A stretch of 63,364 nt of DNA, taken from positions 1-63,364 of the IMG/VR virus record IMGVR_UViG_3300020581_000085, one strand, 5' to 3'. Numbering within the stretch: position 1 is the first letter of the stretch; every line of letters starts with the position of its first letter. Origin of the DNA: a virus. Taxonomy: Duplodnaviria > Caudoviricetes. Positions 3,577-58,111 of this stretch are shown here, in pieces. The position numbers were made by a program, and so were the translations under genes. Under the pieces are notes generated by a model. That model saw only the letters and a program-made list of their open reading frames with translations, made no database searches and was not told the origin of the DNA.

Positions 3577-5499
3577 ATGGCCCCGTGGAGCAGAAAAAAG
3601 CGCGTCGAATTCGAAGGGGCGTTCTATGACTTCCTTTCCGAATGCCGAGTAAACAGCAAGGATGACGGAGAGATCATCCTTGGTAATTGCCTTTACCGAG
3701 CACAGCGCATACTTTTCACCGCGATATTCGACGGTATGGAGCAGGACATCCATACGTTTGACGCTCTCAAATCCCGACAATTGGGCATCTCGACATCGGC
3801 CCGCGCCCTTAATGTATTCTGGAGCGGCATGCACGATGGCCTAGCAAGCGCGTGCGTGTTCGATACCGATACCAATAAACAGAACGCCCGTCGCGAGATA
3901 GAAACTATGGTTGAGGCTTTGCCTGATAGCCTCGGGTTTCCCAAGATCAAAGCAAATAACCGAAACGCAATCACCTTGGAAAACAACTCGACTATTACCT
4001 TCATGTCGGCCGGCGTTAAAAAGAGTAAGTCGTCCGGAACTCTAGGCCGGTCTTTAGGCCTAAGCGCGTATAATGCCTCCGAAATTTGCAGCTTTGATAA
4101 CGATGAGGGCTGGGAAGCATTCCAAAACTCGGTATCTGATAAGCATCCAAACCGACTTTATGTGAGAGAGTCCACTGCCCGCGGCTACAACTCTTGGCAT
4201 GAAATATGGGAGGAAGATAGATCCGACCCCACTCATGTTACGTGCGTCTTCTTAGGATGGTGGTCTAAGGATACTCAGGTAATCGAGCGTAACGAAGCTG
4301 ACTTCGAACTCTACGGCGTCCAGCCACCTACCGATATCGAGATTAAGAAAATAGAGTTGGTAAAGAAGCTATACGGCTGGCAGATAACTCCTGAGCAGTT
4401 GGCATGGGTGCGCCGTAAGAGCGATCCTACCGGAAAGAAAGAGGGAGATGCGCCCGCTGAATTCACTCCAAACGTAATCCGTCTTCAGGAGCAGCCGTGG
4501 GTCGAGGAGGACGCATGGCAGATGACCGGGAGTGTGTTCTTCACTCCGGAGAAACTAGCTGAGCAGGCCAACCGTAATGTCGCCAAGAACTTCTCAACTT
4601 ACTACTTCGCTCCCGGTATAGAATTCACTGATATGCGCGTCTATAAACCGCCGAATAATAAGTCGATCGAGCTGAAGATATGGGAACCGCCGCAGCAAGA
4701 ATCGGTATACGTGGTAGCTGCTGACCCAGCCTTTGGTTCCCATGAGGATAATGACCGGTCCAGCATTCAAGTTCTGAGATGCTACGCTGACGGGTGCGAT
4801 CAGGTCGCCGAATACGCATGGCCACTGATAGGGACTCGACCATTTGCTTGGGTAATTCTTGCCTTGGCTGGCTGGTACGCCAAGGAGATGAGCGACATTT
4901 ATCTGATCGTTGAACTCAATGGGCCCGGCAACGCGGTGTGGGATGAGATCGTGTCCACTCGCCAGCATATTAACGCCGGGTATCAGCCCCATGAAATGGA
5001 CGATAAGGGATTGGCTAACGTTTTCTGGAACGTAAAGAATTACGTCTATAGCCGCCCTGATTCGCTGGGTGCTGGGAAGGCTCAGCAATGGCGCACGTCA
5101 GGTGGTGCGGGCCCTACTGCAAAGGTTCGTCTGATGGAGCGTCTGAGGGATTTTACCGACAATGGAATGCTTCGTATCAGGTCTCAGGACTCCCTCGAGG
5201 AAATGAGATCCGTTACCCGTGAAGGTGATACGATAGCCGCTCAGGGCAAGAATAAGGACGACCGAGTGATGGCCTTGGCCTTGGGCATTCGATGCTGGGA
5301 GGAACGGGTCAGGCGTACGCTATCGGTCAGCCAAAGAACCAGGGAACGGGAGTTGTCCAAGCTTCGGTTGACACCGGAGGACCGATACAAGATGTTCACC
5401 TCCTACCAGTTTCAGCAATTTTTGGGCGAGAAGAAGATATTGAGGGAGCGGGAAATGCGAGCTCTCAAGGCCCATAATCGGAGGTTTGGACGTCGATGA
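3577..5499 (+). CDS. terL: Terminase large subunit
   Basis: Walker A 'LKSRQLGIST', coupling motif 'ESTARG', RNaseH-like nuclease 'AADPAFG...DRS...DDRVMA'. Confidence 0.93.
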   Translation: MAPWSRKKRVEFEGAFYDFLSECRVNSKDDGEIILGNCLYRAQRILFTAIFDGMEQDIHTFDALKSRQLGISTSARALNVFWSGMHDGLASACVFDTDTNKQNARREIETMVEALPDSLGFPKIKANNRNAITLENNSTITFMSAGVKKSKSSGTLGRSLGLSAYNASEICSFDNDEGWEAFQNSVSDKHPNRLYVRESTARGYNSWHEIWEEDRSDPTHVTCVFLGWWSKDTQVIERNEADFELYGVQPPTDIEIKKIELVKKLYGWQITPEQLAWVRRKSDPTGKKEGDAPAEFTPNVIRLQEQPWVEEDAWQMTGSVFFTPEKLAEQANRNVAKNFSTYYFAPGIEFTDMRVYKPPNNKSIELKIWEPPQQESVYVVAADPAFGSHEDNDRSSIQVLRCYADGCDQVAEYAWPLIGTRPFAWVILALAGWYAKEMSDIYLIVELNGPGNAVWDEIVSTRQHINAGYQPHEMDDKGLANVFWNVKNYVYSRPDSLGAGKAQQWRTSGGAGPTAKVRLMERLRDFTDNGMLRIRSQDSLEEMRSVTREGDTIAAQGKNKDDRVMALALGIRCWEERVRRTLSVSQRTRERELSKLRLTPEDRYKMFTSYQFQQFLGEKKILREREMRALKAHNRRFGRR

Positions 5500-41388: not shown

Positions 41389-41820
41389 ATGGATAACCTA
41401 CCGATAATCATAGAGCTTCTTGGCCCACCTAGAGGTAAGGGGCGGCCCAGGTTCCGTGTTATGGGGAAGTTCGTGTCGACCTACACTGACGCTGAGACGA
41501 GAAAATATGAGGACAGGCTGAAGGGCGAGGCAACGTTGAAAATGCTCGGTATTCCTGCCCTAGATTGCGCGCTTTCGGTAAGGATAGAGGCTCACATGCC
41601 CATCCCTCAAAGTTGGAGCAAAAAAAATACCGAGGCCGCCATTGGTGGTCGTTTTATGCCAATCACGAAGCCTGATTCAGATAATATCGTCAAGATGTTG
41701 GATGCTTTAAATAAAGTAGTTTGGAAGGATGATTCTCAGATCGTAAGTCTGTTCGTGCTCAAGCGGTATAGCGATAACCCAAGGCTCAGGATTGTGGTTT
41801 GGAAGTGGTTTGATCAATAG
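41389..41820 (+). CDS. rusA: RusA-family Holliday junction resolvase
   Basis: 'P.GKGRPRF', 'YTD..T..YE', 'KPDSDNIVK..DALN...W.DDSQIV'. Confidence 0.9.
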   Translation: MDNLPIIIELLGPPRGKGRPRFRVMGKFVSTYTDAETRKYEDRLKGEATLKMLGIPALDCALSVRIEAHMPIPQSWSKKNTEAAIGGRFMPITKPDSDNIVKMLDALNKVVWKDDSQIVSLFVLKRYSDNPRLRIVVWKWFDQ

Positions 41821-41885
41821 GTAGTTTACCTAACTGATTGATTCTAGCCATAGCGGTATTGACACATAGGCACGACTCAATCCAT

Positions 41886-41965
41886 AAAAAGGCGCGGCCC
41901 GCAGGGGACAAATCCTGCGGGCCGAATAGAAGTCCGATGCTCTTTGCGGGGCACCACCGGACGAG
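41886..41965 (-). ncRNA. Candidate counter-transcribed antisense RNA to ncRNA A
   Basis: - strand TTGACG(41997)-N17-TAAGTC; two hairpins, the last an 11-bp stem (41895-41924) followed after 4 nt by TTTTT. Confidence 0.5.
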
Positions 41966-42330
41966 ATTGACTTAGGACATATAGATTCCGACGTCAACCC
42001 TCGCCGTCAACCCCAGCAAATATCATCGGTTCCATAGGCCAGCCCGTCTAACGGGATAGGTCCTGCGAGCCTAGTCATGGTTGTTGCGGGATTACCTAGC
42101 CAAATCAATGAAACATTGGACGCTGGCGTTACGACGACCAGCACGAACGGCGCCTTAGCCTGATCTGGGGTGTTCGATCCGCCGCCGCATGGGTCTGTGA
42201 GTGTTCTGACAGAGCGACCCCAGAACAATACTCCTCGATCAGGTTCCGAAAACCGGAATCGCCTTCTGTTAGGCGGGTTTCCTCTGCCCGGTAGATTTTT
42301 CCCTTCGGGAAAAACTACCATAGTTAGAAT
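41890..42330 (+). ncRNA. Candidate long structured ncRNA A
   Basis: Promoter TTGACA(41859)-N18-CATAAA; nested helices (CGCCGT/ACGGCG, CCCGT/ACGGG, GCTGG/CCAGC, CCTGATC/GATCAGG, TTCCG/CGGAA, CGCCT/AGGCG); terminal cUUCGg hairpin. Confidence 0.55.
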
Positions 42331-42361
42331 AGTTTATCGATGTAAGTTAAGGGGACTTCCA

Positions 42362-42598
42362 ATGAACGGGATCGAGAGAATTGCATCTGTATCAAGGTTG
42401 AGTAGAGCCGCAAAGGAAGAGATGAAGAAATGGAAGGAGAAGTCTGGAATACGCGCGATAGTGCCAAAAACTCAAAACCAGAAGCTTGGGGCTAAGAGGC
42501 TTCGGCTCTTGGCTAGAAAGATGGACAGGCACGAGCGACGAAAAATATCCCTAGGACCAGCGAGCGAAGTGAGAATCATCAAGTCGTCTGGTGCCTAA
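42362..42598 (+). CDS. Small basic protein
   Basis: SD-like GGGGA; stop overlaps dnaB ATG. Confidence 0.55.
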   Translation: MNGIERIASVSRLSRAAKEEMKKWKEKSGIRAIVPKTQNQKLGAKRLRLLARKMDRHERRKISLGPASEVRIIKSSGA

Positions 42599-43989
42599 TG
42601 CACAACGTCGAGATTGAGCAAATCGTCTTAGGTTCCATTTTGATGGACAACCGGTTATTCCAGGTGGTGTCGGAGAAGATCAGCTCATTCGATTATTTCG
42701 AGCCGCTGCACGCCGAAATCCACGGGATAGCCGAAACCCTGATATCTATGGGTAAGCAGGCTTCACCTATTTCTGTGGTTACGTTCCTACCGTCAGATTT
42801 CAAAATATTAAACCTCACTGCACGGGAATACCTTGCTCGCCTCGCCGCGGCGTCGACAATCCCCACCGAAGTTCCCCAACTGGCCGATATGATCCGTGAC
42901 TTGTCCGACCGTCGCGCCCTAAACGGCGTCGCAACCGAGTTAGGAAGGGCAGGGAGTGGCGATCCGGGCCAGATGGCTACGGAGGCCATAGAGCGGCTGG
43001 ACGCGATCCTAGCAGCCCGTACGGTCTCTGGAGTGCCTTCCCTGAGTATGGAACAATCCATCGCCAGGGCGATGGATGCCGCGGCCAAGGCATATCAACG
43101 AGATGGCGCCATTTCGGGCCTATCCACAGGGCTGAAGGATTTAGACCGGAAACTTCTCGGCCTGCAGCGGGGCGAACTCGTAGTGATGGCCGGCCGGCCT
43201 GGTTCCGGTAAGACCGCAGTTTCCCTGTGTCTCGCCCGCAACATGGCAGAGAGGGGGCACAAGGGCATCTTCTATTCACTTGAGATGGGTGACGTGCAGT
43301 TATCCCAACGGATGCTGACTGACGAGGCCTATGACGCTGAGAAGATTGCCTATAGCTGGCTTAGATCGGGGCGGTTTAGGGAGAATCAGTTTTTGGCAAT
43401 CCGGGACGCCGGGTACCGTCTGCAATGTCTACCAGTGAGGATAGAACAACAACCTTCGATGACAATGGGGCAGGTAGCTACGCGAGCTCGGCAGCAAAAA
43501 CGCTCGAAAGGGCTGGATTTTTTCATCATCGATTATCTCGGACTGATGAAGCCCTCCGGCCGGTACGCCGGCAACAAAACAAATGAAATCGGGGAGCTCA
43601 CCGCGGGCATCAAGGCCCTGGCGAAGGAATTGGATTGTGTCGGTCTCCTATTGTGCCAACTTTCGCGCGGGGTTGAGGGGCGGGAAGACAAGCGCCCCAA
43701 CATGGGGGATCTTCGTGATTCGGGGAATATCGAGCAGGATGCGGACGTGATCGTCATGATTTACCGCGAAGCCTATTACCTTGAGCGGAAAGAGCCCCCC
43801 GCAGGGTCTGCCGAATATCTCGTTTGGTCTGACCGGATGCAGGCTTGTTACAACGAAATGCACCTTATCGTGGAAAAGCAGAGGTCGGGCCCGATCGGAA
43901 CCGTCAAGGTGTTCTGCGACGTCGCATCCAATGCGATCCGAGATCACGGCTACCAGCGAGCAGAAGATTTGAACCAAATGGCAATCTAA
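42598..43989 (+). CDS. dnaB: DnaB-like replicative helicase
   Basis: 'AGRPGSGKT', 'FYSLEM', 'IDYLGLM', 'QLSRGVE.R.DKRP...DLRDSGNIEQDAD', 'KQRSGP.G'. Confidence 0.95.
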   Translation: MHNVEIEQIVLGSILMDNRLFQVVSEKISSFDYFEPLHAEIHGIAETLISMGKQASPISVVTFLPSDFKILNLTAREYLARLAAASTIPTEVPQLADMIRDLSDRRALNGVATELGRAGSGDPGQMATEAIERLDAILAARTVSGVPSLSMEQSIARAMDAAAKAYQRDGAISGLSTGLKDLDRKLLGLQRGELVVMAGRPGSGKTAVSLCLARNMAERGHKGIFYSLEMGDVQLSQRMLTDEAYDAEKIAYSWLRSGRFRENQFLAIRDAGYRLQCLPVRIEQQPSMTMGQVATRARQQKRSKGLDFFIIDYLGLMKPSGRYAGNKTNEIGELTAGIKALAKELDCVGLLLCQLSRGVEGREDKRPNMGDLRDSGNIEQDADVIVMIYREAYYLERKEPPAGSAEYLVWSDRMQACYNEMHLIVEKQRSGPIGTVKVFCDVASNAIRDHGYQRAEDLNQMAI

Positions 43990-44003: not shown

Positions 44004-44417
44004 ATGACTGCCCAGCTATTCGCATTCCCTGAGACCATCCAATCTCCACCAAAGACGAAGGAAAAATATACTGAGGAATTCGAGACCTTCTGGCTGGCCT
44101 ACCCTCGGAAGATGAATTGCTCAAAGCTCATGGCATTCAGGGCGTGGAAGAAATTAGACCCGGGCGAACAGTTGCAGGCAGCCAGAGCACTAGTAACATT
44201 CTGCAACTCATGTCGGGGTAAGGAAGAACAGTATATCCCCCACGCCGCCACATGGCTCAACCAGCGCCGATTCGAGACCGTCCAGATACAGATCAAGCCG
44301 CAGCAAACAATAAATATCGACTGGCCCACCGTGCTTAAAATCTATTCCAAAACAAATAATTGGAACTACTCTTACGGTCCTGCCCCTGATGAAAAAGGTT
44401 ATCGGGGACCAAAATAA
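44004..44417 (+). CDS. Stand-alone replication-protein C-terminal-type domain
   Basis: 'FETFWLAYPRK...K..A.RAW.KL', 'YIPHAATWLNQRRF'; no N-terminal HTH or iteron segment. Confidence 0.7.
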   Translation: MTAQLFAFPETIQSPPKTKEKYTEEFETFWLAYPRKMNCSKLMAFRAWKKLDPGEQLQAARALVTFCNSCRGKEEQYIPHAATWLNQRRFETVQIQIKPQQTINIDWPTVLKIYSKTNNWNYSYGPAPDEKGYRGPK

Positions 44418-57841: not shown

Positions 57842-58111
57842 ATGGATATGGAGTTGATGCAAGCTATATCGCGTGTCCGGCGGTCTACGACGAACCGGGA
57901 TGTTCTGTTTGTTTGCGATGAGTGTGAGAGGTTGCTGTCTCGTAGCTCAGTGGTAGAGCAGGGCGCTGTTAACGCTCAGGTCGCAGGTTCGATGCCTACC
58001 GTGACAGTCAGGGCTAAGTTGAGCCGAGCGGAGATACAGAAGAACTATCGGGTGAGGAAGAAGGCTGAGGCTTCAGAAGCGAGGAAACGGCGTATGACGA
58101 ACCAGAACTAG
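57842..58111 (+). CDS. Small basic hypothetical protein containing a tRNA-like segment
   Basis: Basic C-terminal helix 'SRAEIQKNYRVRKK'. Confidence 0.55.
   Translation: MDMELMQAISRVRRSTTNRDVLFVCDECERLLSRSSVVEQGAVNAQVAGSMPTVTVRAKLSRAEIQKNYRVRKKAEASEARKRRMTNQN
57936..58007 (+). tRNA. tRNA-Asn(GTT), possibly degenerate
   Basis: D arm TAGCTCAGTGGTAGAGC, anticodon stem GGGCG-CTGTTAA-CGCTC, T arm GCAGG-TTCGATG-CCTAC, acceptor TGTCTCG/CGTGACA, G73; two stem mismatches; followed by TCA not CCA. Confidence 0.7.

Follow-up and report, generated by a model that had tools for sequence, protein, structure and literature searches.

Cis-antisense control of replication genes is textbook knowledge for plasmids and for the oop RNA of phage lambda, and, to our knowledge, very few such units have been defined in phages. 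The lambda oop RNA is 77 nucleotides (nt) long and overlaps the cII coding sequence at its 3′ end. RNA I of plasmid ColE1 is ~108 nt long with three stem-loops, whereas the long RNA II stays hybridized to the DNA at the origin, where RNase H cuts it to prime Pol I; attenuation in pT181 and pIP501 is driven by counter-transcripts, and the hok/sok layout places a short antisense RNA against a long structured RNA. Here, we analyzed a 541-bp gap (positions 41821–42361) in the uncultured tailed-phage record IMGVR_UViG_3300020581_000085, all 63,364 bases of which (completeness estimate, ~95%) are called the window below. The gap belongs to an early gene block on the plus strand, with rusA on one side and, on the other, a small open reading frame (ORF) of 78 amino acids (aa) followed by dnaB. 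A sequence-only reading had described it as a long structured RNA with a 5′ counter-transcript, built like ColE1 RNA II/RNA I, and had proposed either an RNA-primed, antisense-controlled origin or an antisense-controlled attenuator of dnaB. We file the 5′ part of the gap, a module of facing promoters and a predicted antisense small RNA (41859–42033), under the known kind of cis-antisense control of replication genes. In position and size the unit is closest to lambda oop/pO, and in logic it is closest to plasmid counter-transcripts.

The module was found in 36 distinct phage sequences, the window included. Loci were first fetched by scans anchored on three proteins, namely, DnaB, RusA and the 136-aa protein encoded after dnaB; a search of all these loci with an nhmmer profile built on the 5′ core then gave 19 distinct sequences. 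A first gene-blind DNA-pattern scan of viral contigs then gave 15 hits, including seven new contigs that represented six distinct sequences, and a second one gave 15 hits, of which 14 were confirmed by nhmmer and 11 were new. The metagenome scan gave seven loci, three of them useful, and a scan of genome contigs with the single DnaB protein gave nothing. Two sequences from an early DNA-pattern scan (L004 and L006) were chance matches and were rejected; another early pattern gave no hits. Blastn showed no match to cultured phages or to 72,556 plasmid records. Rfam 15, searched at the gathering score and at E values up to 10, gave nothing in the region and nothing in 12 related loci, the RNAI family included. 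In the literature covered, with subscription journals and supplements outside its scope, we found no description of an antisense RNA unit ahead of a phage dnaB.

Next, the promoters were compared among the relatives. Two promoters, P(+) and P(−), face each other with ~100 bp between them (Table 1), and both had been named by the sequence-only reading as TTGACA at 41859 and a convergent TTGACG-N17-TAAGTC; we found them in place. The P(−) pattern TTGAC[GT]-N17-TA was kept in all 36 sequences, with a spacer of exactly 17 bases whose bases are variable. On the plus strand, 29 of the 36 have the TTGAC of P(+) upstream of the terminator hairpin, always at the same distance from it; a −10-like, A-rich hexamer of the [TC]A[CT]AAA type (TACAAA/CATAAA) follows 17–18 nt later and overlaps the U-tail of the minus strand. 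The case for both promoters is this conservation at fixed spacing. The predicted start from P(+) is at ~41893, near the base of the hairpin H1.

From ~7 nt past the −10 of P(−), all 36 sequences showed the same layout, namely, a first stem-loop (SL1), a short linker, a hairpin of 9–16 bp and a T-rich tail. In the window, the small RNA is predicted to start at ~41962, 7 nt past the −10, and to end in the U-run at 41890–41886; the sequence-only reading had likewise predicted an RNA (~85 nt) ending in an 11-bp stem plus TTTTT. Predicted lengths ranged from 71 to 95 nt across the 36 sequences, and a script counted two hairpins in 25 of them, three in 10 and four in one; the small RNAs of L010 and L016 have an extra hairpin inserted. 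H1 reads on the minus strand as an intrinsic terminator followed by UUUUU (plus-strand AAAAA at 41886–41890) and on the plus strand as the 5′-terminal hairpin of the leader. Its sequence is hardly fixed: the strings of the terminator 5′ arm were all different among the first 19 sequences, two of these strings (L070 and L079) being the wrong hairpin picked by the script, and six of 10 H1 pairs were changed on both sides (alignment A16). SL1 likewise showed a G:C to A:U exchange between clades, with CCGAU/AUCGG in the clade of the window and CCAAU(CG)/(CG)AUUGG in the distant clade. The comparison thus bears out the promoters, the terminator and the two-hairpin small RNA, from which we infer that both RNAs are produced.

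The facing plus-strand RNA was then analyzed. The fold of 41885–42330 scored z = −6.4 on the plus strand and −4.75 on the minus strand against dinucleotide shuffles, and much of this signal comes from the 5′ hairpins, since the 3′ part alone has a weaker z. A structured plus-strand RNA had been proposed in the sequence-only reading, with covariation as the check. We ran this check on 14 leaders of the distant clade, using an alignment by MAFFT that was not fitted to the structure: over four helices, 83.8% of the cells were paired compared to 76.3% in shuffled alignments, and 13 of 26 pairs showed changes on both sides compared to 6.5 in the shuffles. None of 500 shuffles reached the observed value on any of five measures, and slid controls gave at most 56% paired. 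The leader helices therefore co-vary beyond the shuffles, and two of the four are outside the small RNA, supporting a structured plus-strand RNA. These two helices form a hairpin that spans the P(−) DNA, and in the distant clade they showed both-side changes in three of five and four of four pairs, respectively. This hairpin lies outside the small RNA, upstream of its start, which argues for a plus-strand RNA, and its G-U pairs fit the plus strand.

The leader also holds a long-range helix, X:Y. Its arm X (CCGAUG...) is inside the antisense target, and its arm Y (...CAUCGG) is outside it, in a C-rich tract with a direct repeat, CG[AC]CGTCAACCC, at 41989 and 42002. X:Y was present in the minimum free energy (MFE) folds of 10 of 11 leaders of the window clade. 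When inner arms of cognate and non-cognate leaders were compared, the cognate duplexes were more stable (−10.5 vs −7.8 kcal/mol, p = 0.0018, n = 10), and a larger set gave −9.99 vs −8.33 kcal/mol (permutation p = 0.0014, n = 21); in the 11 newer sequences the outer CCGAU/AUCGG pair was demanded by the search pattern, and hence the inner arms alone were counted. One-sided changes of X:Y in L002 and L070 give G-U pairs on the plus strand only. Folds of single sequences and the cognate/non-cognate duplex test were used here because MAFFT misaligned the arms, so that RNAalifold, given either the mixed or the window-clade small RNAs, found no more than part of the terminator. A covariance model of the distant clade (R1) found the window-clade copies weakly, and its alignment (A13) was excluded from the counts because it mixes in partial hits on the reverse strand.

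Table 1. Positions of the features of the locus in the window
Feature	Position	Strand	Remarks
rusA	41389..41820	+	Pfam RusA, E 9e-33; frame open from 41143; start (~41389) read from translation
Promoter P(+)	41859..41888	+	−35 TTGACA 41859–41864, 18-nt spacer, −10-like CATAAA 41883–41888
Predicted antisense small RNA, ~76–80 nt	41883..41962	−	SL1, 7-nt linker, terminator hairpin; two-hairpin MFE fold −38.3 kcal/mol
Hairpin H1	41895..41924	both	perfect 11-bp stem 41895–41905/41914–41924, 8-nt loop; flagged by terminator scan
SL1 of the predicted small RNA	41932..41962	−	GUCCGGUG/CAUCGGAC, 8 bp including one G-U, 15-nt loop
Long-range helix X:Y	X 41934–41951, Y 42012–42029	+	18-nt arms, 83% complementary, ~90 nt apart
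Leader hairpin across P(−) DNA	41967..41997	+	UUGAC 41967–71 with GUCAA 41993–97; apical GGA 41975–77 with UCC 41987–89 (MFE folds)
Promoter P(−)	41969..41997	−	−35 TTGACG (41997 to 41992), 17-nt spacer, −10 TAAGTC (41974 to 41969)
Lineage-specific 3′ non-coding domain	42036..42289	+	UACG-loop hairpin 42123–42141; core 42135–42300 recurs in other samples
Terminal hairpin, cUUCGg loop	42290..42319	+	43 nt before small ORF
Small ORF, 78 aa, basic	42362..42598	+	from ORF list; stop overlaps dnaB start (TAATG)
dnaB-type replicative helicase	42598..43989	+	Pfam DnaB_C, E 5e-73; DnaB N-terminal domain, E 5e-17
136-aa protein, replication-initiation relative (C-terminal part)	44007..44417	+	PHROG 270, E 2e-16

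As to what follows the module, dnaB was found within the fetched downstream DNA in 22 of the 36 sequences, an SNF2-related or ResIII/DEAD helicase in four and a DUF1376 protein in one; the other nine had unidentified ORFs or the contig end there. Judged by this comparison, the module is always placed at the head of the replication genes. In 12 cases, which comprise seven of the first 19 sequences and five of the six from the gene-blind pattern, it lies directly against the dnaB start, and in the gene-blind-pattern sequences this start was 55–65 nt past the pattern. Since the module abuts dnaB in these 12, the conserved thing is a messenger leader with a facing small-RNA gene and not a 400-nt primer precursor. 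In the MFE folds of nine dnaB-adjoining leaders, the ribosome-binding site is enclosed in the 3′ arm of a hairpin, the last element ahead of the start codon; eight of these hairpins follow one design (GUCCC/GGGAC, GCCCC/GGGGC, CCUGCC/GGCAGG or AGCCCU/AGGGCU), L065 is different, and the arms of the first gene-blind-pattern sequences were paired by eye.

In one metagenome relative, L010, the module and dnaB are separated by a ProQ/FinO-domain gene (2660–2995; PF04352, E 1e-19), whose product is possibly a phage-borne chaperone for the small RNA. FinO-domain proteins are described as binding cis-antisense RNAs of plasmid replication control at their terminator hairpins, Inc/repZ and RepX/repA-repC among them (PMC9977716, PMC8136791). 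The slot before the helicase is filled by unrelated small proteins, namely, a basic 78-aa protein (the window and L162), a basic protein with '...SELR...' (L002, L016 and L072), a zinc ribbon (L007) and the ProQ protein of L010; the four small ORFs of the window (42362–42598), L002 (3762–4001), L007 (1027–1227) and L010 all overlap the dnaB start. Separately, the loop region of the promoter hairpin of L007 (667–675) contains a perfect TTATCCACA, which we take to be the DnaA-box consensus and which is not common to the other relatives.

We propose that the small RNA is probably a counter-transcript that lowers or times the expression of the helicase operon, with the module as a regulatory leader of the replication genes. 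P(−) would make an RNA of ~76–80 nt consisting of one stem-loop and then an intrinsic terminator, and the leader of the message for the small ORF and dnaB would be made from P(+) plus read-through from rusA. The first ~70 nt of this leader would be fully complementary to the small RNA, so that pairing would give an RNA duplex of ~70 bp. In the free leader X would be paired with Y, and binding of the small RNA would open X:Y, because X lies inside the target and Y outside. The result may be duplex-triggered decay or refolding of the leader, or exposure of the C-rich Y tract as a candidate Rho entry site, and collision or interference between the facing promoters may be added to it. Both the pairing of the two RNAs and the direction of its effect are what we infer from this arrangement.

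Several observations weigh against this proposal. A strict sigma-70 scan called neither P(+) nor P(−), because both −10 hexamers are weak. Fold energy did not favor a strand: of 19 sequences, only 10 had a small-RNA interval that was stabler as the minus than as the plus strand (p = 0.34). The only contig from an RNA library that matched the window covers 42135–42283, outside the small RNA. In the sequencing runs searched, just one DNA run, which may be the source, contained much of the stretch (0.42 of words), and the small-RNA interval had no cover as RNA in any run, the uncovered parts being uninformative. The alignment-based scan placed one relative, the 4.6-kb contig L007, in a metagenome-assembled genome labelled Terriglobia, and the pattern of the distant clade was absent from 401 searched genomes of the phylum of that assembly. 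The ProQ/FinO gene was present in one of the 36 sequences, and PF04352 was absent from the window's record. In the window, moreover, the small RNA lies ~400 nt upstream of the first start codon (42362). When the target was forced unpaired in 12 leaders, predicted access to the ribosome-binding site did not change consistently, and a simple translational switch is therefore unsupported. Furthermore, no plus-strand terminator was found past the antisense target: the window has none beside Y, and the leaders of L002 and L007 have none. Thus, as regards the attenuator of dnaB proposed in the sequence-only reading, the antisense-controlled leader agrees with the module abutting dnaB in 12 sequences, and the attenuator itself, for want of a conserved plus-strand terminator, is not supported.

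As with lambda oop, a short RNA is predicted that starts at a promoter facing the early operon, stops at an intrinsic terminator and is encoded directly ahead of the replication genes. Unlike oop with its overlap of cII, the RNA here would be confined to a non-coding leader and would end at 41886, ~65 nt past the rusA stop (41820); moreover, the plus strand here has a facing promoter of its own and a leader structure that co-varies, and no sequence relation was detected. In lambda, pO activity modulates pR transcription and replication initiation (PMC3985674).

Among plasmid systems, RepX/repA-repC of RSF1010, Inc/repZ of ColIb-P9 with FopA and FinP/traJ of F with FinO similarly have a cis-encoded RNA of ~70–80 nt whose first stem-loop is followed by a second one that serves as the terminator and carries a 3′ tail (PMC9977716, PMC8136791). 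Here, too, the small RNA is complementary to the leader of a replication-gene message, and a FinO-domain gene stands alongside in L010. RepX and FinP cover the ribosome-binding site and the start codon (PMC8136791), in contrast to the overlap in our sequences, which stops short of the start by 55–65 nt in the distant clade and by ~400 nt in the window. The window also differs from the FinO-dependent systems in having no FinO-domain gene in its record and in being carried by a phage, not a plasmid.

With ColE1, the locus shares an antisense RNA that covers the 5′ end of a structured plus-strand RNA of several hundred nt at a replication locus and that would alter its folding. The sequence-only reading had called the architecture ColE1 RNA II/RNA I-like; membership in that family was nevertheless not supported. 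Unlike RNA I, the small RNA is ~80 nt long with two stem-loops in most of the 36 sequences, and no RNAI model matches it; unlike RNA II, the long body of ~350 nt is not kept with the antisense unit, being shared with L162 alone and absent from most relatives, and a helicase operon, not a primer-processing site, follows downstream. Finally, like pT181 and pIP501, the leader target pairs with a downstream segment that antisense binding would free, as proposed for X:Y, whereas in the window, L002 and L007 there is no intrinsic terminator just downstream for the freed segment to complete.

The 3′ ~300 nt of the gap (42036–42320) is a separate, lineage-specific and well-kept non-coding block by its pattern of conservation, and it is a candidate for the phage origin or for a new structured RNA. 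It was 84.8% identical to the block of L162 over 256 nt, compared to 67.8% over the whole 693-nt alignment. The gaps of nine other relatives showed no similarity to the window gap by blastn or tblastx, and their fold z-scores ranged from +0.1 to −5.1. The core of the block matched short contigs of three other studies at 95–100%, with the flanks uncovered at 85% likeness; these studies are a leaf-litter metatranscriptome, one run guessed to be RNA and one soil DNA run, and contig depths of 2–6 demonstrate presence and not transcription. A 26-mer of the core gave no hits in viral contigs, and no second copy of the domain occurs in the window or in any fetched locus. A second lineage has a block of its own, with L070 (5074–5430) and L072 (3586–3961) 78% identical over 387 nt, ~160 nt of which are nearly identical, while the coding flanks are ~70% identical; the L072 block folded with z = −5.1 on the plus and −3.9 on the minus strand.

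One account of this 3′ domain is that it is a structured regulatory RNA of the messenger leader, either a sensor of a ligand or protein or an attenuator ending at the terminal hairpin, that gates read-through into the small ORF and dnaB. We entertain this tentatively, as a possibility. Fold support was greater on the plus than on the minus strand for 42034–42361 (z = −2.96 vs −0.74), for 42130–42320 (−2.44 vs −1.49) and for the alignment of the window with L162 (Alifold z, −2.48 vs −1.95). RNAalifold on these two sequences gave 87 consensus pairs, with nine compensatory and none broken, and the UACG-loop hairpin holds two of the nine; 54 substitutions were counted, of which 20 fell in paired columns (52% of the columns). 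As only two full sequences were available, these covariation statistics are weak. The cUUCGg hairpin that the sequence-only reading had noticed is indeed present in the window, and at its position L162 and the soil contig X6 both have another hairpin, whose stem is different and whose loop is AAGA. For L162 (minus strand, ~4880–4930), GATTTTTG comes after this hairpin, shortly ahead of the small ORF, and the arrangement looks like an intrinsic terminator, whereas the hairpin of the window has no clean U-run. In addition, three overlapping weak terminator-like hairpins are present on the plus strand at 42242–42300 and were not seen in L002 or L007; the last of them and the cUUCGg hairpin are mutually exclusive, because the T-run of one is the 5′ arm of the other. 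No Rfam family matched the domain.

Alternatively, the same 3′ domain may be a lineage-specific DNA origin, perhaps read by the small protein and regulated, as the lambda origin is by pR and pO, by transcription through it from the facing promoters; we consider this unlikely. The antisense module would then be a shared control unit before exchangeable origin cassettes. In accordance with this, the gap and the small ORF change together (window with L162; L002 with L016 and L072; L007 with its zinc ribbon; L010 with ProQ), and the non-coding block outconserves the neighboring genes in both lineages described above. A promoter facing pR beside the lambda origin modulates replication initiation (PMC3985674). 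Unlike iteron or DnaA-box origins, however, the gap contains no iterons beyond a single two-copy 12-nt repeat, which is situated in the 5′ module, and has no AT-rich stretch (maximum AT 0.65 in 40-nt windows). No DnaA box within one mismatch was present in the window, and three were found across 19 gaps (7004 nt) compared to 1.5 expected. The compensatory changes in the hairpins also suggest RNA over protein-bound DNA.

A third account, an RNA-primed origin of the ColE1 kind, was the first proposal of the sequence-only reading and is in our judgment quite unlikely. A transcript from 41859 through the 3′ domain would form a persistent RNA-DNA hybrid and be processed into the primer, and the antisense RNA would refold it and set the rate of replication. 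Such a view accommodates an antisense RNA covering the 5′ end of a structured plus-strand RNA of ~430 nt and a 3′ domain that has been kept better than the flanking genes, a frequent trait of functional origins. It also accommodates the replication genes of the phage: the statement that no primase, polymerase or full-length O-type initiator was recognizable is true for the five families searched in the 63-kb record (Phage_rep_O, HTH_36, DnaG zinc ribbon, Prim-Pol and DNA_pol_A; none found), and the only initiator relative is fragment-like. The latter, the 136-aa protein, matched the PHROG 270 'replication initiation protein' profile at positions 163–256 of 383 only, in its C-terminal part, so that the origin-binding part seems to be missing. 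We keep the RNA-primed origin in consideration because of the absence of these five families and the unusual conservation of the 3′ block. Against it, most relatives with the antisense module have no such 3′ domain, the module abuts dnaB in the 12 sequences, unrelated sequences fill the slot in other lineages, Rfam gave no match to RNAI or any other family, and the structural support for the 3′ domain is moderate (z about −2.5). That a tailed phage carries a plasmid-style RNA-controlled origin, in which exchangeable 'RNA origin' cassettes stand behind a shared antisense unit and a primer or an R-loop is formed, appears improbable to the same degree.

The small RNA could also act mainly in trans on messages of the host or of other phages, or P(−) could merely block transcription, with leader pairing incidental. 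SL1 is invariant in the distant clade (CCAAUCG/CGAUUGG in 14 of 14) and may be a seed or a protein-binding site, and facing promoters can interfere with no pairing of RNAs, as reported for lambda pO/pR (PMC3985674). Nevertheless, a co-varying leader helix involves exactly the antisense target and the unit is always ahead of replication genes, which makes these two possibilities very unlikely compared to a counter-transcript acting on the leader of the helicase operon.

Lastly, that the region is a degraded or unrecognized protein gene (ORF 42170+ or ORF 42007−) or a type I toxin-antitoxin locus is largely refuted and has almost no probability left, although the gap holds open frames of 142 aa (plus) and 104 aa (minus) and its layout is also that of hok/sok. 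Neither ORF matched Pfam, and in tblastx among the gaps of 10 relatives the window gave nothing below E 0.2. Three indels (3, 2 and 11 nt) separate the gaps of the window and L162, and L162 has lost the start ATG of a 28-aa ORF at 42077; because of these changes the open frames of the gap were ruled out. The sequence-only reading was therefore correct that the ~540 bp hold no convincing coding sequence, and the protein-like conservation of the two ORFs that would have spoken against it was looked for and not seen. Unlike in hok/sok, where the long RNA carries a small hydrophobic toxin ORF, no hydrophobic small ORF was found among the nine ORFs of at least 20 aa, and in the distant clade the module and dnaB lie too close together for a peptide in between.

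The early block as a whole reads, in order, a helix-turn-helix protein, a 170-aa protein, RusA, the gap, the basic 78-aa ORF, the DnaB-type helicase and the 136-aa protein. The 78-aa ORF has a single homolog, in L162 (49% identity over 65 aa, E 7e-7), and gave no lead from Pfam or PHROG and no usable match in the ESM Atlas. ARAGORN found no tRNA-like gene in 41800–42500; elsewhere in the window, one tRNA gene lies at 57936–58007 (Rfam tRNA, 55.9 bits).

Taken together, the antisense module is a compact, easily recognizable unit found in 36 uncultured phage sequences; the helicases behind it belong to at least three families, and none of the RNA family libraries searched contains it. It would offer a testable handle on the timing of replication-gene expression in soil phages, and it may serve as a search motif for replication modules in metagenomic phage contigs.

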